From assembly GCA_965249555.1 (NCBI GenBank), contig OZ252243.1, positions 1,920,001 to 1,984,000 on the forward strand: a stretch of 64,000 nucleotides of DNA. The letters run 5' to 3'. The translations under genes and the position numbers were made by a program. Below the pieces are notes generated by a model. It was not told the origin of the DNA. It did not search any database and was given only the letters and a program-made list of their open reading frames with translations. The stretch's first letter is position 1. Each line of letters begins with the position of its first letter. Of the stretch, positions 7,375 through 56,484 are shown one piece after another. This DNA comes from Nitrosopumilus sp. Lineage in GTDB: Archaea; Thermoproteota; Nitrososphaeria; Nitrososphaerales; Nitrosopumilaceae.

Positions 7375-7507
7375 TGTAGTTATTGTTTTTAAAGAAATAC
7401 TCGGATTTGTACGTAATTGATGTTCTGATCATTTAAATCATTATGACATAATTTTGTGTATGTCATCAGTTTAAAATTTTAAATATGTATATTTGGTATT
7501 ATAATCA

Positions 7508-7597
7508 GGTGGGTAAAGTCTCTTGAGCAATCAAGAGGATCTTGACCGAATCAATGATGCCTATTTGGATAGGATGGGAGACAGGTCAAGAGTCACC
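7508..7597 (+). ncRNA. Candidate structured small RNA
   Basis: Stems CTCTTGA-GCAA-TCAAGAG, TCTTGACC/GGTCAAGA, CCTAT-TTGG-ATAGG, GGTG/CACC; TTTAAATA ~25 nt upstream. Confidence 0.5.
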
Positions 7598-7842
7598 AAT
7601 TAATCTTATCTAATTTCTTACGATGATTTATTTTATTTGAAATCATATCAAAGTATGTTGAATCTTTATGTGTGATTTTTCTCTGCGTTGAAGGTAAAAA
7701 ATTCTGATGACTTTGGACTAAATCCCACATCTCATGTTTCATCAATGTACACTGAAATACATGTCATAACCTATGACATTTCTCCAAGTTTAAAAATTAA
7801 TTTACATTTTCTTTGTTTATCTGAATCATATATCAACAAATC

Positions 7843-45688: not shown

Positions 45689-45877
45689 ATGCAAGGAGTA
45701 AATCAGGCAATTATTCAAGATATGCAGATTCTCAGAAAATCACAGTATACTACATCTGTCTCTAAAGTTGAATGCTATGTTTGTGGCAAGGGATTAGAAG
45801 ATGGCCATAGTATAACTGCCAAGACATTGCCTCATGGAATAGTGTTATTTTGCGATGTTCATTATTCATTACAATAA
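45689..45877 (+). CDS. Small Zn-binding hypothetical protein
   Basis: CYVCG...FCDVH. Confidence 0.6.
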   Translation: MQGVNQAIIQDMQILRKSQYTTSVSKVECYVCGKGLEDGHSITAKTLPHGIVLFCDVHYSLQ

Positions 45878-45921
45878 TTGACCATAAACGCGATTATGTA
45901 CTAGTTCATACTATCTAGAGT

Positions 45922-46597
45922 ATGGGTATTCAAAGGAGTTTACTAATTTTTCAAAATTCATTAAAATCAAAAAATTCTGTAAAAACTCACACATATCTTT
46001 TACAAAACTTTATGAAATTTTACAAAATATCTGATTACAATTCTGTAGTTAACATCGAAAAAAAAACTTCAAACAATGATTGAAGATTATGTAATGGAAT
46101 TAAAAGATAAAATATTCCCAAATTCAATTTCAACTTACGCTAATCCGATTAAGACTTGGAATCAAATGATATTGATCTTAATTGGATGAAAATCAAAAGA
46201 CCATAACCCTGTTATGGTAAAGCGTTCTGGTTCTTCTGCATATTCTACTGAAGATGTAAAGAAAATGCTAGATGTTACAACAAAAATTCGAAACAAAGCA
46301 ATCATTCACTTTATGGCTTTCACTGGTTTTTGAATTGTGGCATTGCCTGATTTACAACTAAGACACATTAGAGATATGCCATTAGGCTGTAAAATGATTA
46401 CAGTTTATGAGGATTCAATAGAAGAGTATCAGACTTTTTTAACTCCTGAAGCAAGTAGTGTTTTAGATAATTACTTTGATCAAAGAAGAAAGAGTAATGA
46501 GAATCTGACAGACAAAGACAAGGGTAAAGAACTTTTTTCTTTAACATCCAGAGGTTTGGTAGAATATGAAAAAATAAAAGAAAAATTCAATCTTTAA
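45922..46597 (+). pseudogene. Degraded tyrosine recombinase/integrase
   Basis: Multiple frameshifts; YSTEDVKKML...RNKAIIHFMAFTGF*IVALPDL with TGA (46331-46333) at the box I Arg position; C-terminal catalytic half missing. Confidence 0.8.
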
Positions 46598-46637
46598 GTC
46601 AGTTTGTTGAAATCTTTTTTAGAATAATTGTATTTTA

Positions 46638-47174
46638 TTGGCATTAAACATTACAATCATTATCCAACTAGCAACACAACCGTTAATATTTTCATTATTA
46701 CAATCTAATGAGTTGAGAAGACGTGTTTTCAAATTAGAAGAACCGTTTAGAGAAATTATGGAGAAAGACATAGCCAAGAAATTCACTAGTGAATTATTCA
46801 CTGCATGTGGAGCAACTCTAGAATCACTATTTAAGTACGACAACAAAGACAACACACATGTTTGGGTTTATGATGCCAATGATGAAATTTTAGCTGTATT
46901 AGTTTTTGAAGATTTAGGAAAAGAATTTCATATAGTTGGCGTGTCTAATAATTTTGCAATAAATGAAACTATTTTAGATGATGCAAAACCAGGCGGTTCA
47001 TTGTATCTGGTTATGGAAAATTTTGCCATCGATATGGGTGTGAAAAAAATATTTCTGGAGTCAATTGAGATTAGAACTGACTATTGGAAAATAATGGGAT
47101 TTAATTCAACAGGTGATCCAAAGGATGGAAAATTTTGCAAATTATTCCCTATGGCGAAGGAACTTAAGCAATGA
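46638..47174 (+). CDS. GNAT-family acetyltransferase (start may be downstream)
   Basis: GVKKIFLESI...YWKIMGF C-terminal GNAT pattern. Confidence 0.65.
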   Translation: MALNITIIIQLATQPLIFSLLQSNELRRRVFKLEEPFREIMEKDIAKKFTSELFTACGATLESLFKYDNKDNTHVWVYDANDEILAVLVFEDLGKEFHIVGVSNNFAINETILDDAKPGGSLYLVMENFAIDMGVKKIFLESIEIRTDYWKIMGFNSTGDPKDGKFCKLFPMAKELKQ

Positions 47175-47373
47175 TTTCTTTTTTTGTCTCAGGAGTATAA
47201 TCTGGCATTGGTTCCATAGAATGGATTTGTTTTAAAACAATTTGAATCTCTGGATCATTTCTAAGAGTGTTTTCAAGAAGTTGTGATTTACTTTGTTTTA
47301 ATTTAGTAGCCAAAATTCCAATTGCACTAACTAAATCTCCATTGAATGTGTATGATTTTGCGATTTTTGTCAT
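47164..47373 (-). CDS. Ribbon-helix-helix protein
   Basis: MTKIAKSYTF...LATKLKQSKSQLLENTLR; ATG at 47373. Confidence 0.65.
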   Translation of the reverse strand: MTKIAKSYTFNGDLVSAIGILATKLKQSKSQLLENTLRNDPEIQIVLKQIHSMEPMPDYTPETKKEIIA

Positions 47374-47607
47374 ACTATTATATGATATATATCGCATAAA
47401 TATACTACTGTTAGGCATAAATGTAAAAATTTCTGTTTTTATATAACAAATAATTTCATGCATGAAAAACCAAATAAATCGATTAGTAGAAACCCAAAAG
47501 ACTATTTGCTTCAATTTCAACAATAATCAATTTCAAAATAATCGCGAATTATTGATACAATTGGTACTGTTAACTTTAGATTTTCCTCCATTGCATCATT
47601 ATCGTTT

Positions 47608-47832
47608 TTGAGTTGTTTTTGTAATGGCACTAAGTGGAGATTTGAAATGGATGAACATCAAAGATCTATTACAGATTCTTTAGATAAACCAAAATCAAAA
47701 TGGTTATCAATGTCATCAAAGTATGTTGGAACTTGTGTGCAATGCAATGGGGTAATTAATCAAGGTGAATCAATCTTATGGAATAAAGAGAAAGGTGCTA
47801 AACATGAGGACTTGTCCTATACTTTTCACTGA
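47608..47832 (+). CDS. Small hypothetical protein with CxxC
   Basis: KYVGTCVQC..I..GE.I.W. Confidence 0.5.
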   Translation: MSCFCNGTKWRFEMDEHQRSITDSLDKPKSKWLSMSSKYVGTCVQCNGVINQGESILWNKEKGAKHEDLSYTFH

Positions 47833-47959
47833 AAGCTCCAAAACAATAATGTTATTTTTTTAATAAGTTAAATTCCTAAAAGGTTAGAATAATATCTGGA
47901 TTCTAAACAATAACAACTTGATAGTGAACCTTATAGATCATTAATACTGAAAAAATTAC

Positions 47960-48175
47960 ATGGTAGATCATGTTCATGTTTGGAGAAAAAAATTGAGACT
48001 GCGAGAACTTATGGATATTACAAATCAAGAATTAGAATCAGGCAAAAAAATTACTGTAATTAATGAAATATTAGATATACAAATGCAAAAACGATGGAAC
48101 TTGGTTAGTACTAGAAAACAACACCTTGATGATATAAAGAAAATATTGGCAAATCAATATGTTTTAGTGATTTAA
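47960..48175 (+). CDS. Hypothetical protein
   Basis: 71-aa ORF. Confidence 0.55.
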   Translation: MVDHVHVWRKKLRLRELMDITNQELESGKKITVINEILDIQMQKRWNLVSTRKQHLDDIKKILANQYVLVI

Positions 48176-48207
48176 AATTTTAATTTCTGGTATCTAAATA
48201 AATTCAA

Positions 48208-48609
48208 AAGATTGAAGTTTTTGGGTTTGTCCTTTACTCTGTCTTGCCATATGCATCGACATGTAACACGACAATAGGATGTTGTGGAATCTTCAATCTT
48301 CGTTAATTATATGTTATATTAAATGATAAACTAGATCAACAAAATTATGTATATTTGTACATATTTAACATAAATTATAAACAAATATTAGACTTGTATG
48401 ATATATACTTAAATTTCATTTCTACGTATTTGATATAACGAGGATCTATCAAACTGCTAAGAAAATCCATCAGAATTTGAAGGATTCTAATGGAAAACTT
48501 TGAAGAAGCAGAAAGATAGGGAAAAAGGAATACACAAAAAAAGATGGAAGCATCTAAAATTCAAAAGTGTATTCCAATTAATCCTCGTTTCCTAATTCGA
48601 TATTTTTTT
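48208..48609. ncRNA. Non-coding structured cassette, copy 1
   Basis: Diverged direct repeat of 53551-53933 with conserved, covarying stems. Confidence 0.7.
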
Positions 48610-48943
48610 ACAAATTTGCAACAAATTGATAAATTATGACAGAACCTATCACTATTCCAACAATTGCACCAATAATCATCCCAATCTTTTTGAGTTTTTC
48701 TCTTTTTTCAAATTCAATATTGGCTTTTCTTTTTATTTCTGAGTGATGTTTCTTACAACGGAATTTGCCTTCATATTCCTGAAATCCTTTTCCCCCACAT
48801 TCTTCACATCTTCTTTCATTCGTGGTGGTTTTTTTGAGTTTTTCTTTTTTTACTACCGGTTCTAAATCTATGATCGCCTTTTCTTCATTTAGCATCTTTT
48901 CAGCTTTGTCTTCTGCAGTTCTTTTTTTTGGCTCATCTGTCAT
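48608..48943 (-). CDS. Hypothetical membrane-anchored Zn-finger protein
   Basis: CEECG...CKKH and C-terminal TM helix. Confidence 0.6.
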   Translation of the reverse strand: MTDEPKKRTAEDKAEKMLNEEKAIIDLEPVVKKEKLKKTTTNERRCEECGGKGFQEYEGKFRCKKHHSEIKRKANIEFEKREKLKKIGMIIGAIVGIVIGSVIIYQFVANL

Positions 48944-49241
48944 TAAATCAACCTTGATAGAACTTTTAGTGATTTAAAAATTTTAAAAATCTAAAACTAT
49001 GAAAAGAGTAGTAATCTTTAACTGGAATTTATGATATTTTTTACTAAATGAACAAGACTGAGAAAAATATATCAAATGAGATTATGAAAGAGCATTCCAG
49101 ATTATTAAACGATTTAGATTCTGAAAAAAACTCTCCAATTATACTAGAAACAAAGAATTCGAGTAAAAAATATCCATAACTGTTGGATTTTAATTTGGAT
49201 AATTTATGCTAGATTATCTTGATAATTCTTTCTTAATCTAA

Positions 49242-49508
49242 TCAAGCCATCTGAGCCGGAGCCTGTCCATCATATCCCTGTTTTTTGTGTATAGAGTCAA
49301 TTACTGACCTTGTAAATCTATCAAAGTCTTCATTTTTCATAGAATCAATGACTTCATCTACCGTTTTATTCATGTCAATTTCCTTGCATCTGCGGTCTGC
49401 CTCAGAACAATAAAACTCGATATAACTTTGAATATAATCATATTCTGGTCCTTGAATTCCTATTTCCAACCTTCTTCTACTTAATCTCTCTCTCCAGGTT
49501 TCACTCAT
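49242..49508 (-). CDS. Hypothetical protein
   Basis: 88-aa ORF. Confidence 0.55.
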   Translation of the reverse strand: MSETWRERLSRRRLEIGIQGPEYDYIQSYIEFYCSEADRRCKEIDMNKTVDEVIDSMKNEDFDRFTRSVIDSIHKKQGYDGQAPAQMA

Positions 49509-49560
49509 TGAATCACCATTGATACTACTTTATCGCATTTAAAGAAAATTATTTTTTATT

Positions 49561-50226
49561 TTACTTTATAACCTCATAGAACTGATTGAGACGTTGAGTC
49601 AGTAAATCCTTGTAATCTTCCGTTCTTTTTATGAATTCCATTCTTGTATTTTTCTCACTGCTTACTAGAATTACAACTTGTTTTACTTCAATTCCTGTTA
49701 ATTCTTTGAACATTTCTGAATATGCGGCACCTTGAATAAAATGATCAGTCATCCATTCTTCTTGCTGATTACTTCGTTTTGTTTTATAGTCTATTATTGA
49801 TAATTCTCCATTGTATTTGGCAATACAATCAGACATTCCTGCCAGTTTCATTTTTTTGCTATACAGTCTTAATTCAATTCCATGAATGTCATTGATTTTT
49901 TGTAAAAATGGAATTAGATTATTAAAATGAGCAACTGACAATAGTCTGACCTCGTCAGTTTGTGTTATTTCATTTAGGTGATTTTCAATTAATTTATGAG
50001 TTTGAGTACCTATTATTGAAGATTCTTCTGTAATATATTGAGCAGCTATCTCCTGCTCTTTCCAATTTTGTAGGCTTTGTTGTTTTTCAGCAGACATTGT
50101 TTTGTGTAGTATTGTTGTAATTGATGGAAAAATATCCCCATCTGGTGTTTGATAGTAATGTGCATCATCTTTTTCAATTAATTCTGCTTGTTGAAAATTA
50201 ATTGGAATGTGATTAAACATGTGCAT
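49561..50226 (-). CDS. PD-(D/E)XK exonuclease (phage-type)
   Basis: PSITTIL, GTQTH, AGMSDCIA, IIDYKT, QGAAY. Confidence 0.88.
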   Translation of the reverse strand: MHMFNHIPINFQQAELIEKDDAHYYQTPDGDIFPSITTILHKTMSAEKQQSLQNWKEQEIAAQYITEESSIIGTQTHKLIENHLNEITQTDEVRLLSVAHFNNLIPFLQKINDIHGIELRLYSKKMKLAGMSDCIAKYNGELSIIDYKTKRSNQQEEWMTDHFIQGAAYSEMFKELTGIEVKQVVILVSSEKNTRMEFIKRTEDYKDLLTQRLNQFYEVIK

Positions 50227-50299
50227 CTTGTAAATTTGTTATTTCAGTGTAATTTTAAACTCTTTATTTCTAATTTGTTAAAATTCAAGTATTCCGATC

Positions 50300-51514
50300 T
50301 TAATTTTCTTTGAATCTAGCAGCTTCATCAGAGCCACCAGTTGCATTACCTTTGCTGTAGGAATGCGCTCCAACTCCTGCCAAACTTCCACCCTTTACAA
50401 TTAGATATTCATCCCGTATTGGTTTGTCATCAAGCCAACACTCCAAAATCTCCCTAACCCCTGATGCATATCTTGTCTGAGCAGAAAGTGATGTTCCAGA
50501 AGTGTGAGGAGTCATGCCATGATTTGGCATTGTTCTCCACGGATGATCCTTTGGTGGGGGTTGTGGAAACCAAACATCCCCTGCATATCCTGCTAATTGT
50601 CCTGTCTCTAGTGCTTTTGTCACAGCATTTCTGTCACAAATTTTCCCACGAGCAGTATTTACTAAATATGCCCCATGTTTCATCTTGCTAATCAATTCTT
50701 CATCAAATAGATTTTCAGTCTCTGGATGAAGCGGTGCATTAATTGTAATTACATCACATACCTTTACCATCTCCTCTACACTTTGGTGAAATGTCAATCC
50801 AAGTTCTTTCTCAGTTTCTTCAGGTAATCTATGTTTATCAAAATAATGAAGCTTGACATCAAATGGTTTCATTCTCTTTAGTACGGCCAATCCTATTCTT
50901 CCCGCAGCTACTGTTCCAACATTCATTCCCTCTACATCGTATGACCTTGATACACAATCCGCAATGTTCCATCCATTTTTGATTACCCAGTTGTATGATG
51001 GGATGTAGTTTCTTACCAATCCTAGGATCATCATTACAACATGTTCTGATACACTGATGCTATTGGAATACGTTACCTCCGTTACTGTAATGTCATTATC
51101 CATCGCTGCTTGCAAGTCTACATGGTCAGATCCAATTCCTGCTGTGATTACCATCTTTAGCTTTGGTGCCTTTGCAATTCTTTGAGCAGTAAGATAAGCT
51201 GGCCAGAAAGGCTGTGATATTGCAATGTCTGTATCTACTAACTCTTTTTCAAATACCGAATTTGGTCCGTCTTTGTCAGATGTTACAACATAAGTGTGTC
51301 CCCGCTCTTCTAAGAATTTTCGTAATCCCAGTTCTCCTGAAACACATCCTAAAAGTTCTCCTGGGTTAAAATCAATTTTTTCTGGAGTAGGTGTACTTTG
51401 GCCACCAGGATAACTTGTGATCTTTGGAATATCTGTTCTTGCATAATTTGGTGGGAACTTGTCTTCTGGGTCATCATATAATACACATAATATCTTTAGA
51501 TTTTCTTTACTCAT
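50300..51514 (-). CDS. fdh: NAD-dependent (metal-independent) formate dehydrogenase
   Basis: LCVLYDDP, ISQPFWPAYLT, AGIGSDHVDL, AAGRIG, NTARG, GDVWFPQP, MTPHTSG, HSYSKGNATGGS as in Pseudomonas sp. 101-type FDH. Confidence 0.96.
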   Translation of the reverse strand: MSKENLKILCVLYDDPEDKFPPNYARTDIPKITSYPGGQSTPTPEKIDFNPGELLGCVSGELGLRKFLEERGHTYVVTSDKDGPNSVFEKELVDTDIAISQPFWPAYLTAQRIAKAPKLKMVITAGIGSDHVDLQAAMDNDITVTEVTYSNSISVSEHVVMMILGLVRNYIPSYNWVIKNGWNIADCVSRSYDVEGMNVGTVAAGRIGLAVLKRMKPFDVKLHYFDKHRLPEETEKELGLTFHQSVEEMVKVCDVITINAPLHPETENLFDEELISKMKHGAYLVNTARGKICDRNAVTKALETGQLAGYAGDVWFPQPPPKDHPWRTMPNHGMTPHTSGTSLSAQTRYASGVREILECWLDDKPIRDEYLIVKGGSLAGVGAHSYSKGNATGGSDEAARFKEN

Positions 51515-51639
51515 TTCTCTAGACTTGATGAAATCCTAAACCTGTAAATTAACTTGATCCTCCTAATGAAAAGTTGATTTAGCATATTTTGTATGCCAGA
51601 TTTTTTGTTTTCCAACATGCTTAAGTTCATTTTTTTCTA

Positions 51640-51843
51640 ATGGCATGCATGGATAATCCAACTGAAATCAACTCTGTATATTGGAACGAAAAAAAAAAAT
51701 CATGGGCACACAAGCTGATTCAAGTTGAAGAATATCACGGATTTGAGGAATGTCAGCAATGTCGTAGACCCATGTCCCATAATATCAAAACAGATGGAGA
51801 ATTCAAAGTCGTCTATGTGGAATGTGGATGCTCAAGGCGATAA
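51640..51843 (+). CDS. Small Zn-binding protein
   Basis: CQQC...CGC. Confidence 0.6.
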   Translation: MACMDNPTEINSVYWNEKKKSWAHKLIQVEEYHGFEECQQCRRPMSHNIKTDGEFKVVYVECGCSRR

Positions 51844-51983
51844 TCCAATTTCAAGAAATAATGGTGATTCATTAGAGACAGGCATACATTCGGCTGCAAA
51901 GCTTTATGCCAAATTACACCCCACAGAAGAAAATGCAAAAATAAGAACGAATGAATTTAAAATGAAATTGGTAGAATAGAGTC

Positions 51984-52223
51984 ATGTTTTACCCTTTTTC
52001 TCTTGTTAAAGTAGTATTGAAAAATATAGGGTTTGAAATAAAAGAAGATGATGACGGTGTACTGTCATTTATTCACAAAACTACAAACCAAGAAGTGTTA
52101 ATAGGCATAGACAAGGAATTAGGATCAAATTATCTAAGAAATAAAATGCAAGAAATTAATTTACCTTTTGATTATTTTCATCATCTTACAGAGACCGTCA
52201 AAAAAATAAGTGATAATAAATAA
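51984..52223 (+). CDS. HicA-like fold protein
   Basis: VLKNIGFE...FIH...V.I...KELGSNYLRNKMQEINL spacing; no canonical GSH. Confidence 0.45.
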   Translation: MFYPFSLVKVVLKNIGFEIKEDDDGVLSFIHKTTNQEVLIGIDKELGSNYLRNKMQEINLPFDYFHHLTETVKKISDNK

Positions 52224-52227
52224 AATC

Positions 52228-52542
52228 TCAATCCTTTTCAAATCCTTTACTAACAAAGCCATTTGTTACATGCAAAAATGAGCCTAATCTCATGGCAGCC
52301 TCTTTAGAAGACAGTCTTTTAATGCGATCTTCAAGTTCCTGAATAGTCATTTCTCCTATTAGTTTGGTTTTATCCTCATCATCTCTATGATGAATATCCT
52401 CTAAGATGGTTACTAACTGAGAACGACAAATGTTCATGAGATGTCTCATCAAGATTAAACATAGGTCAGGTACCCCATCTTTAGCAGGTCTTTTAATAAC
52501 AAAATCACCACACAGATGGCAATTTGTTTTAAAATCACTCAT
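52228..52542 (-). CDS. Hypothetical protein
   Basis: 104-aa ORF with CHLCG. Confidence 0.5.
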   Translation of the reverse strand: MSDFKTNCHLCGDFVIKRPAKDGVPDLCLILMRHLMNICRSQLVTILEDIHHRDDEDKTKLIGEMTIQELEDRIKRLSSKEAAMRLGSFLHVTNGFVSKGFEKD

Positions 52543-52664
52543 GGTGATAATATTATAACCTCATCTGAAAATATGATCTACTTCTAGTCAAAGGGTGGTT
52601 TACTAGTATATCAATTAAAAAATTTCCAACAAGCTTAAATCTTCATGCTCATTCTTGAATTTAA

Positions 52665-53219
52665 ATGGGATTAGACGTTTTTGATGCTATCGCATTAACT
52701 ATTCATGCAAACAACGACGAAATCGTAAGTAAAACAACAATACAGAAATTAATTTACTTTCATACGGTTACAATCAAGAATTTAGACATTTCAAACTATA
52801 CTCATTATTTCTATGGCCCATTTAATCGAGAAGTATCAGCTGCATTAGAAGACATGTCTGAATTTTCATATATTGATCAAAATATTATTTCAGGATACTA
52901 TGAAACTTACAATTACAGGTTAACATATAACGGAATCAAATATGCTGAAACCGCAATGGAGAAATATTCTGATGAATTCAAAACAATTTCTAAAACTATC
53001 GAGATATGTAAAGAATACTGCGAACTAAAACCAACACCACTATCATATGCAGCAAAGGCACACTATATTTTAGCAAACTCAAAAGATCAATTTAAAGACA
53101 AATATTTAGCAGAAGATGTAAAAATAATTGCAAAAGATTTTGATTGGAATATTTCCACAGAAGATGCATTAACTGGACTCGCACTACTTCAAAACCTCAA
53201 CCTTGTCTCTACCTCATAG
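52665..53219 (+). CDS. YwgA/SocA (Panacea)-like winged-helix protein
   Basis: KTTIQKLIYF...FYGPFNREVSAAL...YRLT..G. Confidence 0.7.
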   Translation: MGLDVFDAIALTIHANNDEIVSKTTIQKLIYFHTVTIKNLDISNYTHYFYGPFNREVSAALEDMSEFSYIDQNIISGYYETYNYRLTYNGIKYAETAMEKYSDEFKTISKTIEICKEYCELKPTPLSYAAKAHYILANSKDQFKDKYLAEDVKIIAKDFDWNISTEDALTGLALLQNLNLVSTS

Positions 53220-53376
53220 TTATTTTAGGTCCAAAGCAATCAGAGATCCGCTTTATGGATTCATTGATCTTTCTGAATTAGAAACTAAAGTAATAGATAC
53301 TGAAATTTTTAGAAGGCTGCAGTTTATCAAACAACTTAAAAGACTGAAATCTTCAACAAATCTCCCAAAAGATTGA
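53203..53376 (+). pseudogene. Truncated HD-domain (YwfO/SAMHD1-like) phosphohydrolase
   Basis: Hand translation KAIRDPLYGFIDLSELETKVIDTEIFRRLQFIKQL, then breaks off. Confidence 0.8.
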
Positions 53377-53471
53377 TGGGTTTTAGAATCATTTACAATA
53401 ATTCCAATGTTAACAGGCTCGTTTCTTACTGGGTCTGGAATAAATCTTGCAACAACAAAACTATACGTCAT
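53253..53471 (-). pseudogene. Truncated DUF3037-like protein
   Basis: YSFVVARFIPDPVRNEPVNIGIIV N-terminal motif. Confidence 0.7.
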
Positions 53472-53550
53472 ATCTGTTACCTTTGATTACCGCCAAGTGG
53501 TAAATGGTCTCACAATTCTGCAAATTCATCAAAACTTTCATAGAAATTTA

Positions 53551-53933
53551 GAAGAGTGAATCTTTTGGAATTGTCCTTTACTCTGTCTTGCTGTATGCAT
53601 AGACATGTAACACGACAATAGGATGTGTGGTGCTAACTTCAATCTTCATTGATTTTATGTTAAATTGAATGATAAACTAGATCAATCATATTATTTACAT
53701 TTGTAGTAATTTAACATAAAATTATAAACAAATATTAGGATTATTTCAAGAAATACTTAAATCTAATTTCAGCATATATACACTGACGAGGAACTATCAG
53801 ACCTGTCGAAATTCAAAGAGAAAACTTTGAGGAGGTAGATAGATAGAAAAAAAGGAAAACACGAAAAAAGATGGAAGCATCTAAAATTCTAACATGTTTT
53901 CCAGTAACCTCGTTTCCTAATTCGTTATTTTTT
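53551..53933. ncRNA. Non-coding structured cassette, copy 2
   Basis: Homologous to 48208-48609. Confidence 0.7.
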
Positions 53934-54024
53934 GACAAACTTATATGAATATATTATAATCATAAATTTTTGTTTAAAGTATCCAATACATTTAATTTCT
54001 TTTCATGCGTATGCTATTCTACAC

Positions 54025-54402
54025 ATGTACAAATCAGTGAATCTTCTCGAATACAAATTATATCATAGAAAATGTGATTTATTATTACAAGAAACAGAAA
54101 TTAGATTTGCAGGATTCTTAGACACTATGGGTAATCTCATCGCTGGAGGATTCAGAGAAGGTGTAACACCACTTAATGATGAATCAGAAAGGATCAAACT
54201 TCATATGGAAACTCTTCTACGAGTAAAAACAGAACAAGACTTTGATTATGACTTGGGAACTGTCGAGTACTCTGTTTCACAAAGGAAAAAAGTTATCACA
54301 TTTACTTTTGCATTTGATAGTAAGGTACTATTTGTATCAACAGAAACAAATGTTGAAATCGAAAAGACTGCTCAAAAAATAATAAAAATTTGTAGTATTT
54401 GA
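54025..54402 (+). CDS. Roadblock-like protein (DUF6659-like)
   Basis: EIRFAGFLDTMGNLIAGG...FDYDLG. Confidence 0.7.
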   Translation: MYKSVNLLEYKLYHRKCDLLLQETEIRFAGFLDTMGNLIAGGFREGVTPLNDESERIKLHMETLLRVKTEQDFDYDLGTVEYSVSQRKKVITFTFAFDSKVLFVSTETNVEIEKTAQKIIKICSI

Positions 54403-54426
54403 TTTAAAGTTGATAAATATTTTATT

Positions 54427-54732
54427 CTAGTCTCCACATACTTTTCCAAATTTTTCATAAAATTGTTTTACATCTTCAATGTTATCTAAGACTTGGTTGA
54501 TATTTGTATCTGGAAATCTATTATCAAACCATTCTTTGTATTTTAAATCATTAGCATACATGTCATTATAATATTGACCTCCTTTACTACTATTATAGAC
54601 ACATAATGTGAAATCATCTATCTGTCTTAACTCTGGATTTGCACTCTCAATTTGCTCAATTGCCTGATTTACTTCATCAAGTTTATTTTGTATTTCTGAT
54701 AAAGTATCTGGCAGAGACTGTTTCATCATCAA
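54427..54732 (-). CDS. Hypothetical protein (hydrophobic N-terminal part possibly upstream in another frame)
   Basis: 101-aa ORF. Confidence 0.45.
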   Translation of the reverse strand: MMMKQSLPDTLSEIQNKLDEVNQAIEQIESANPELRQIDDFTLCVYNSSKGGQYYNDMYANDLKYKEWFDNRFPDTNINQVLDNIEDVKQFYEKFGKVCGD

Positions 54733-55113
54733 TATCTGAAACCATTTTTTCCATAGATGCTAAAGTCATTATTGTTCCTGTTGCAATAATTACGATCACA
54801 GCAATGATTACAATAATTATGATCGGTTTCACATGTTTTCTACATTAACCTAAGAATTAAGAATTACAAGATATTCGTGCTTCATAATTCGGCAAACTCA
54901 TCATAAATAAGAGGAATCAGAGAGAACACCTTGGTATAATCATCAGCATATCTGCTGGAATTCTCAAATTATAAAACGCTTTGAAAAAAATAAAATCATG
55001 CTCTATTTGATCGCAATTAATCTAGGCACAAATTACAAAAATTTCTTTAAGTAGAGTGTAATTATTTTTCATTCTGATTTTTTATCTCGAGTACAATTCT
55101 AACCATTTCATCG

Positions 55114-55214
55114 AGTCAGGAGTACCTCGCGGTGTTATCTGGAAGGGCCCAATGCTCACATAAACTAGTTAATGCGTAACAGAGCCTCCAAACTAAGGAG
55201 ACTGACTTTTTTTT
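55114..55214 (+). ncRNA. Candidate structured small RNA
   Basis: AGTCAG/CTGACT closing stem, GCTC/GAGC and CTCC/GGAG arms, T-tract after, TATA-like sequence ~30 nt upstream. Confidence 0.5.
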
Positions 55215-55284: not shown

Positions 55285-56412
55285 GTGAACGTGAAGATTA
55301 TCGTAATTGCATTATCTGTAGTAATGCTGGGAACATTTGTTTTCCCTACTTTTGCACAGCAGTTCAAAGAACCAAATTATGATATACGTGGGGGAACCAT
55401 TTTGGGCTTTGAGATCGATTCTGAATCCACATCGCTAATAATCGCACTTGATGCTAGAGCCCGTGGAGAATTAATCATAACACTGCCTCGGAATTTAATT
55501 GATGCAAGAACTGGTTCTGAGGATATTAATTTTGAAATCTTTGTTAGTGGTTTGAAACTTAGTTCATATGATGAAGAAATAACATCTTTTGATAGAACAG
55601 TTACAATTCCATTCAAACGATCAAACAATGAATTAATAATAACTGGAACAAAAATTTTCAACCAAGTATCAACTACTCCAATTACTAAACCACAACAAAT
55701 AGAGCAAATAATAGAATCTGAATTAAGAAAAGAAATTCCTGAAGGTAATGCAAAACTCTTGATATTCTCTGATACCCAATGGTCTGGTGCAATGGAATCA
55801 TCGAGTTTTGAATATGCCGAAATAGCTGGTCAAGGTGATAAGAGTGTCATTTTTGGGTGTGAATCCTCCTTTGGTCGTCAGGGAGTTTTTGGTGCAAAAA
55901 TTGAAAAATTAACACAAGATGGTTATGTGCGACTTGTTGTAATACAGAATCAAGAAATATTATCTCAGGGAACAACTGTGGCAGAATTTGGTGATGTACT
56001 AATCAATGGTAATTGTTTTTCAAGTTTTAGTGCTGCTCCTGGTGGAGGATGTTTAATTGCAACTGCAACATATGGTACAGAACTAGCACCACAAGTACAA
56101 CAACTACGAGAACTTAGAGATAATCAGTTACTCCAAACAGAATTAGGAACATCCTTTACAGAATCATTTAACGAATTTTACTATTCTTTTTCACCAATTA
56201 TAGCAGACTATGAACGTGAAAATCCTGTTTTCAAAGAAATGGTCAGACTAGCAATTACCCCCTTGATTTCATCACTATCAATTTTGAATTATGTTGATAT
56301 GGATTCAGAAGAATCAGTGCTAGGTTATGGAATTTCATTGATTCTACTAAATATTGGAATGTATGTTGGAATTCCAGCTGTAGTGATTGTTGGGATTAGA
56401 AAAAGATTCTAA
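55285..56412 (+). CDS. Secreted CFI-box-CTERM domain protein
   Basis: Signal peptide; GGGCLIATATYG...VQQLRELRD; C-terminal TM. Confidence 0.85.
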   Translation: MNVKIIVIALSVVMLGTFVFPTFAQQFKEPNYDIRGGTILGFEIDSESTSLIIALDARARGELIITLPRNLIDARTGSEDINFEIFVSGLKLSSYDEEITSFDRTVTIPFKRSNNELIITGTKIFNQVSTTPITKPQQIEQIIESELRKEIPEGNAKLLIFSDTQWSGAMESSSFEYAEIAGQGDKSVIFGCESSFGRQGVFGAKIEKLTQDGYVRLVVIQNQEILSQGTTVAEFGDVLINGNCFSSFSAAPGGGCLIATATYGTELAPQVQQLRELRDNQLLQTELGTSFTESFNEFYYSFSPIIADYERENPVFKEMVRLAITPLISSLSILNYVDMDSEESVLGYGISLILLNIGMYVGIPAVVIVGIRKRF

Positions 56413-56484
56413 AACATCCAGTTATCCTGAAAAAATCACCATACCATAGTATAATTATACCTAATACCTAGTGAATAGTGTAAT

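Follow-up and report, generated by a model that had tools for sequence, protein, structure and literature searches.

Ammonia-oxidising archaea of the family Nitrosopumilaceae account for a large share of marine nitrification and, to our knowledge, their RNA biology beyond the universal RNAs appears little charted. Archaeal box C/D sRNAs carry terminal C and D boxes that form a kink-turn, together with guide regions complementary to rRNA or tRNA. A lineage-specific RNA has also been described in marine group II archaea: Tan1, an abundant ncRNA of 229 nt, was found through its expression, and the passages of the paper drawn on here give its function as not known and describe only six homologues (PMC5069720). 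By that description alone, the RNA presented in this work resembles Tan1 in being structured, non-coding and restricted to one lineage of planktonic marine archaea, and differs from it in belonging to another phylum, in being shorter and in its strong covariation (PMC5069720). Within the literature covered (listings and abstracts, with passages of PMC5069720, PMC6563490 and PMC13475601, subscription-only papers and supplements lying outside this scope), no such RNA is described in these archaea.

The RNA occurs in two copies in the window, the whole 64-kb stretch of DNA analysed here at its full length, which belongs to a complete Nitrosopumilus genome. Taken together with its homologues, it very probably represents a family of stand-alone structured RNA genes.

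Two copies and their common fold

Copy 1, which bears an additional hairpin on its P2 arm, scores 104.6 and 105.3 bits with the covariance models of two successive rounds (R1 and R2, respectively), and copy 2, which is near the family consensus, scores 153 and 139.6 bits. The two match each other with E = 1.1e-88, so their likeness is not due to chance, and covariance-model searches of the complete 2.23-Mb genome found no further copies, even at E ≤ 5. Copy 1 folds with −44.7 kcal/mol (z −4.56; none of 200 shuffles equally good) and copy 2, in the same three-armed layout, with −34.2 kcal/mol (z −2.69; 3 of 200 shuffles equally good).

Each RNA is contained in a longer duplicated module (Table 1). 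The two module copies are 77% identical overall, with ungapped blocks at 74–91%, and include ~240 nt of conserved DNA 5′ of the RNA. The initial annotation had paired 48437–48609 with 53786–53933 as a duplication of ~170 nt; the homology of the pair stands, with the start of copy 2 now placed at 53785, and the length holds for the RNA part, but the real repeat unit, upstream DNA included, measures ~420 nt. The parts listed in that annotation were all recovered in both copies: the ACGAGG/CCTCGT closing stem, the CTATC/GATAG arm, the second arm with its AGATG-GAAG-CATCT cap, the upstream ATACTTAAAT motif and the trailing oligo-T. The compensatory T-A to A-T swap that it reported in the second arm is real as well, the pair being U-A in copy 1 and A-U in copy 2, and it is seen again in the family alignment, where this position is A-U in 50, G-C in 5, U-A in 4, G-U in 3 and otherwise composed in 1 of the 63 distinct homologues.

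Table 1. Features of the two module copies and genes of the surrounding island (window coordinates)
Feature	Copy	Position	Strand	Remarks
Whole duplicated module	1	48200..48617	+	~420 nt: upstream hairpin block, promoter region, RNA, T-run
Whole duplicated module	2	53544..53942	+	~420-nt repeat unit
Upstream block with hairpin	1	48222..48282	tentative	block 48222–48300; G-U pattern favours minus
Upstream block with hairpin	2	53566..53626	tentative	block 53566–53640; counterpart of the copy-1 block
Near-palindrome TGTATATTTGTA	1	48348–48359	+	~85 nt upstream; putative regulator site
Motif AAACAAATATTAG	1	48379–48391	+	~55 nt upstream; promoter region 48348..48391
Near-palindrome TTTACATTTGTA	2	53694–53705	+	promoter region 53694..53738
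Motif AAACAAATATTAG	2	53726–53738	+	promoter region 53694..53738
TATA-like box ATACTTAAAT	1	48405..48414	+	TTAAAT ends 22 nt before closing stem
TATA-like box ATACTTAAAT	2	53753..53762	+	family-wide hexamer
Three-way-junction RNA	1	48437..48609	+	~173 nt
Three-way-junction RNA	2	53785..53933	+	~149 nt
Closing stem AACGAGG / CCTCGTT	1	48437–48443 / 48583–48589	+
Closing stem GACGAGG / CCTCGTT	2	53785–53791 / 53908–53914	+
First arm CTATC / GATAG	1	48446–48450 / 48515–48519	+
First arm CTATC / GATAG	2	53794–53798 / 53842–53846	+
Second arm GGAATACAC / GTGTATTCC	1	48527–48535 / 48567–48575	+
Second arm GGAAAACA / TGTTTTCC	2	53854–53861 / 53895–53902	+
Cap AGATG-GAAG-CATCT	1	48542–48555	+
Cap AGATG-GAAG-CATCT	2	53869–53882	+
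T7 run	1	48603–48609	+
T6 run	2	53928–53933	+
Phage-type Cas4-like PD-(D/E)XK exonuclease		49561–50226		phrog_298 E 7.1e-58; Cas4-like E 2.7e-8
2-hydroxyacid-dehydrogenase-family enzyme		50300–51514		island gene
Protein like the DarG C-terminal part		52665–53219		E 5.6e-9, far under curated cut-off
DUF3037 N-terminal fragment		53253–53471		in island; faces DarG-like region

A BLAST search of 201 genomes from the same family, with the 421-nt module as query, gave matches in 27 of them, counting this genome and G093 (unpublished; a weak partial match), the 3′ half of the RNA being the best-conserved portion. A structure of seven helices (P1; P2, P2b and P2c; P3, P3b and P3c) was written from 21 sequences aligned by MAFFT, and two rounds of covariance models yielded 65 matches, 63 of them distinct. 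The fold is a three-way junction closed by P1, in which GACGAGG pairs with CCUCGUU. The first arm is built of P2, P2b and P2c; P2 pairs CU(A/G)UC with GA(U/C)AG and bears a distal extension whose size varies between a 9-nt loop (genus g17) and ~100 nt. The second arm comprises P3 (GGAAAAC with GUUUUCC), P3b (CGAA with UUCG) and P3c, a 5-bp stem with a 4-nt loop. The strands at the junction are short, A-rich and variable in length and sequence. Identity of at least 90% is reached only close to the junction: P1 has ACGAG...CU.GUU, P3 has GGAA.A...UUCC, and in P2 the pairs at both ends qualify. These positions are paired, and unpaired stretches show no conservation common to the whole family. The narrow taxonomic span of the family could account for part of the sequence constancy seen in P1 and P3.

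The structural selection proposed in the initial annotation was confirmed when covariance models were built and searched against related genomes, the 63 distinct homologues (65 in all) showing changes on both sides of base pairs in all seven helices, in 28 of 39 pairs and 146 cells. In this model-fitted alignment, of a type biased towards the modelled structure, 95.1% of cells pair, against 39.4–50.4% with slid partners, and the observed values were reached by none of 500 shuffles. The MAFFT alignment (n = 21), which was fitted to no model, is therefore the fairer control: 91.7% of its cells pair, against 40.6–47.6% when partners are slid by 1–3 columns, 14 of its 41 pairs are changed on both sides, and again 0 of 500 shuffles attained the observed values. 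RNAalifold on its own recovers P1, P2c, P3 and P3c (23 pairs, 8 of them with compensatory changes). The 3′ tail might instead pair with the 3′ strand of P2 and the junction; this alternative, judged by eye, was discarded, as it lacks covariation support. Two copies look damaged: L017:62-214, on a short contig, has a broken P1 3′ strand from which point its sequence diverges, and L051:813-961 has a degenerate P1 5′ strand and lacks the TATA-like box.

A shorter subfamily, of ~120 nt, forms P1 from AACGAGA with UCUCGUUG and differs in the tip of P3. The short form is located 35–41 kb from the long form in four genus-g1 genomes (G218, G211, G301 and G170; g1 is the genus of the window) and 120 nt upstream of it, on the same strand, in G217, and it is found alone in some genomes (G210, G235 and G206). 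L204, L206 and L190:1260-1380 are among the loci concerned. In G208 (L199:1640-1760, minus strand), a short-subfamily RNA directly follows the homologue of a 67-aa zinc-ribbon ORF, which in the window lies between the two copies (51640–51843) and has no RNA after it.

Promoter motifs, upstream region and neighbouring genes

In 61 of the 63 distinct homologues, a TATA-like hexamer, TTAAAT or a close variant, ends 21–24 nt before P1, the distance being exactly 22 nt in 50; L051 is one of the two exceptions, and one locus has too little upstream sequence for full judgement. Going by archaeal promoters, such spacing would put the transcription start on the first P1 base or on its neighbour. On the 3′ side, P1 is followed by a T-rich tract, of T4 or longer in 50 homologues and of T5 or longer in 30 of the 63. 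From these motifs, transcription is predicted to start at or next to the first P1 base and to end at the T-rich tract, and the product would be a discrete trans-acting RNA of 113–197 nt (median 144). The fixed spacing of the box, the T-rich tract and the changing, often convergent neighbours support the reading of each locus as a putative stand-alone gene. The initial annotation had already proposed a stand-alone ncRNA under structural selection, and both elements of that proposal are supported, the second by the covariation; besides giving too small a repeat, it had missed the variable island described below.

On its 5′ side, the long form in genera g1, g22 and g17 keeps two more motifs, the near-palindrome (TGTATATTTGTA in copy 1, TTTACATTTGTA in copy 2) and AAACAAATATTAG; both are missing from the short subfamily. 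The near-palindrome may be the site of a regulator, and the RNA would then be made conditionally. A profile of the promoter region built from 30 homologues matched only the two loci in this genome (next match at E 0.095), so no regulon can be deduced from it; plain motif counts were uninformative in this respect.

Still further upstream, ~165–230 nt before the RNA, a strongly conserved block accompanies it in 11 genus-g1 loci. The hairpin of this block has two compensated pairs in one relative, and the G-U pattern and the hairpin with its U-tract fit the minus strand. The block is possibly a second small RNA, transcribed divergently from a control region shared with the first. A tiny minus-strand ORF over it (26 and 34 aa in the two copies) was rejected, relatives having a stop after 11 codons.

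The genes around the RNA vary and have no relationship from one locus to the next. Considering flanks within 1.5 kb, the largest cluster of real neighbour proteins comprises 5 of 35 loci, and the flanking proteins, as read from their sequences, presumably include ones of uracil-DNA glycosylase, dehydrogenase, nuclease, transporter and HEAT-repeat types. DUF6659 genes stand nearby in 8 of 62 loci, in addition to copy 2, a proximity that, for a multi-copy family, seems to reflect lineage synteny.

Distribution and the variable island

With R1, the RNA was found in 18 of 151 genomes of the family: 8 of 9 in genus g17, 7 of 9 in g22, 1 of 9 in each of g1 and g20, and none in the other 23 genera. 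R2 found it in 22 of the 41 genomes of genus g1, and in 17 of the 29 of high quality. In a class-wide sample, 31 of the 80 genomes from the family had it and 0 of the 70 from eleven other families did. Judging from these searches, the RNA is limited, among the genomes sampled, to four genera of the Nitrosopumilaceae, with 1–3 copies per genome. Several complete genus-g1 genomes are without it, and since this holds for about half of the complete genomes of the genus, the RNA is dispensable. In a scan of contigs with a looser pattern, L078 (Nitrosarchaeum) was the only archaeal record among the matches listed to be confirmed by R2, with 87.9 bits, and chance matches in unrelated bacteria were listed with it. 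A gapped 21-base pattern picked out three stretches in IMG/VR, none of which matches R1 at E ≤ 1, so that they are regarded as chance matches, and neither 50,697 phage records nor 72,556 plasmid records contained a blastn match.

Both copies lie inside a variable island of ~9.2 kb beside trpE (window ~45,880–55,030). This segment is missing from the relative G209, in which ~140 nt take its place and join the trpE flank to the following shared block, and it is filled differently in G317, G207 and G309. At the same place, G207 has a copy-1-type module and the exonuclease gene, and nothing that matches 51844–54868. The island of G309 contains the block 48603–51863 and a copy-2-type module with a DUF6659 gene, and nothing that matches 45876–48602; its homology to this genome resumes at 48603, the 3′ end of copy 1. 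Because the copy-1 type occurs alone in G207 and the copy-2 type alone in G309, this comparison, made at the level of sequence, shows the two copies to be distinct module lineages joined in a mosaic and not a recent tandem duplication.

In addition to the genes in Table 1, the island contains many ORFs without a family. The protein resembling the C-terminal part of DarG is followed by a 57-aa N-terminal fragment without a family match, which we take to be from an HD-domain protein. ORFs at 45922–46597, considered as integrase remnants, found no support in Pfam, PHROGs or NCBIfam. A 12-nt direct repeat, ATTACAATAATT, is present at 45868 and 54807; it is weak and could be a chance occurrence. 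In G207 and G309, an element of ~150 nt (L215:2509-2650; L214, reverse strand, ~1190-1335 of the turned locus) occupies the left island border. It ends in a hairpin whose two strands bear the words of P1 the other way round, a T-run comes next, and it has a 9–10-nt word in common with the 3′ tail of the RNA. It was rejected as a member of the family, with a model E value of 2.3, and it is missing from this genome.

Two observations concern the DNA next to the island. The segment 55043–55213 contains a TATA-like CTTTAAGT and a T8 run (55206–55213) and has more G+C than its surroundings; it is single-copy in this genome and ~72–76% conserved in G209, G218, G317 and G213, at differing places. By its sequence features it could be another small RNA gene; its plus-strand fold is no better than those of shuffles (z 0.68), and it has no Rfam match. 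In the 375-aa ORF at 55285–56412, the 3′ part (56041–56413) is repeated at 70–84% identity in many places in every relative examined, which suggests a multi-copy C-terminal domain family.

Proposed role and relation to known RNAs

The explanation towards which we lean, with some reserve, is that each copy is an independent small-RNA gene of an uncatalogued family, whose product acts in trans and whose junction probably serves as a platform for protein binding. Only the junction-proximal pairs are near-invariant, and the junction strands and distal arms vary; this pattern points to a platform for a sequence-specific RNA-binding protein, and makes a seed for base pairing or a pocket for a small molecule less likely. 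The RNA would then be part of a ribonucleoprotein or act as a protein sponge, the U-rich 3′ tail might be a site for an Sm-like protein, and the extension of P2 would be a variable module. Taken on its own, the platform mechanism is tentative and may well prove wrong. Against the explanation as a whole, no gene is consistently adjacent to the RNA, DUF6659 genes being close by at no more than 8 of 62 loci, besides copy 2, and an island with a phage-like exonuclease and an antitoxin-like gene also fits a mobile or defence link.

Such a link would tie the RNA to mobile or defence islands, where it might help to maintain or regulate a cryptic element, serve as an integration target, or act as a toxin–antitoxin or defence RNA. 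The ~9.2-kb insertion that holds both copies and is missing from G209, the mosaic formed by the islands of G207, G309 and this genome, with G309 homology restarting at the end of copy 1, the phage-type exonuclease, DarG-like antitoxin-like protein and gene fragments, and the patchy, multi-copy distribution all agree with it. However, the nearest tyrosine-integrase match is at least 63 kb from the RNA in 5 of 5 complete relatives, the window has no integrase match (PF00589), no phage or plasmid record matches, the three viral-contig stretches are unconfirmed by the model, two groups of relatives have the RNA at a constant position among ordinary chromosomal genes, and the copies are whole genes, unlike the partial duplications left by integration; we consider the link improbable. 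An insertion-sequence end, which the initial annotation had named as a possible counter-finding, or an attachment site was likewise rejected, there being two copies only, 77% alike, both complete genes, with no PF00589 match in the window. Somewhat less improbable, though still unlikely, is a base-pairing sRNA in which the junction is only a scaffold and the C/U-rich 3′ region, formed by the P1 3′ strand and the UUUCCUAUUUCG tail, blocks translation by pairing with mRNAs at their purine-rich ribosome-binding regions. The tail is invariant in most genus-g1 copies and nearly so, between variable flanks, in those of the long form, and a promoter of its own with an apparent regulator site is what many trans-acting sRNAs have. 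Yet the tail is not family-wide, the 3′ flanks being different in g17, g20 and the short subfamily, and what is conserved throughout the family is paired, not single-stranded.

A cis-regulatory leader, either a riboswitch-like aptamer or a protein-binding leader controlling the gene downstream, has very little to recommend it. Three-way junctions are frequent in aptamers, and a same-strand gene begins 100–280 nt past the RNA at some loci; but the downstream genes are unrelated between loci and convergent in at least 11 of 35, copy 1 among them, a T-rich terminator-like tract comes directly after the RNA, and conserved helices with variable junction strands are the opposite of what known aptamers have. 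The loci do not occupy a constant place upstream of a co-oriented, conserved class of genes. Scarcely any credence can be given to a small-protein gene, or to a type I toxin with an antisense RNA. Both window copies do contain the candidate frames, a plus-strand one of 25–31 aa with its AUG in the cap hairpin and a hydrophobic minus-strand one of 27 aa (MLPSFF...), and the minus-strand peptides are similar. Nevertheless, the AUG is kept in only 17 of 65 homologues on the plus strand and 21 of 65 on the minus strand, being lost through compensated changes in the cap stem; lengths and frames differ, the same conserved bases falling in different frames in copy 1 and copy 2, and the Phe-rich peptide simply results from the A-richness of the sense strand. 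Short hypothetical ORFs annotated on either strand of the locus are accordingly probably spurious.

A bolder extension of the trans-acting ribonucleoprotein reading, speculative and rather unlikely as it stands, is that the ~420-nt module is a portable cassette of two divergent small RNAs that share a palindromic control region and are shuffled between hypervariable islands. The junction RNA would be a ribonucleoprotein subunit specific to these ammonia-oxidising archaea, a counterpart of Y RNAs or of the vault, possibly involved in stress or virus defence. Should a dedicated protein partner exist, a new archaeal ribonucleoprotein would be opened up.

Comparison with catalogued RNAs agrees with the statement of the initial annotation that the RNA could not be matched to a known family. 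The Rfam check that it proposed (Rfam 15, 4227 families, whole window, gathering score) gave nothing on either copy, and at E ≤ 10 in 47800–54400 it returned 5 weak chance matches, none over either copy. ARAGORN found 0 tRNA or tmRNA genes in the 64-kb window. No Rfam C/D-box family overlaps the copies; by eye, their 5′ end is unlike the C-box consensus and their 3′ end has no D box before it. A kink-turn reading was dropped after inspection by eye. The hammerhead ribozyme resembles this RNA in having three helices round a junction, and in some copies, including copy 2, the bases running into P1 are similar to its core heptamer. This candidate was rejected, because the first three bases of the heptamer are not conserved, the stretch is paired in P1, and no Rfam ribozyme matches; other small self-cleaving ribozymes were set aside on the same lack of an Rfam match and on junction strands that vary in length and sequence. 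5S rRNA is alike in size and in its three-helix topology with a closing helix made from the two ends, but the RNA described here is dispensable and patchily distributed. The 5S model (RF00001) does not match the copies even at E ≤ 10, and a normal 5S rRNA gene is present elsewhere in the genome (G000 608988-609107, 76.7 bits).

The likeness to Y RNAs and to YrlA, the partners of Ro60 (Rsr), is the one from which the idea of a protein platform derives. These are paralogous small RNAs with a sequence-conserved closing stem formed by their ends, variable upper modules and a U-rich 3′ tail, all of which have their parallels here, whereas a tRNA-like module and a conserved neighbouring protein gene are absent from our loci. 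TROVE/Ro60 (PF05731) has 0 matches in the complete genome, in a search whose control was positive in 2 of 14 control genomes; as no such gene is present, the likeness is only an analogy.

Orphan structured sRNA motifs such as RF02984 (DUF3800-X RNA) are comparable in another way. RF02984 itself gives the sole Rfam match in the window at gathering score (7507–7598; 46.7 bits, the score required being 38.2), where the first internal loop is enlarged by an insertion of 22 nt. Motifs of this type are, like the RNA presented here, short, stand-alone, backed by covariation, narrow in range and defined by sequence, and the new RNA differs from them in being a three-way junction of 113–197 nt with an archaeal promoter motif of its own. 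Having a TATA-like box, a T tract, covariation and no conserved ORF, it would belong, on sequence features, to the general kind of stand-alone archaeal small RNA genes. Backed by covariation and having a promoter motif, an apparent site for a regulator, paralogues and subfamilies, it is fit for an Rfam entry, as a new family within the known kind of stand-alone structured small RNAs.
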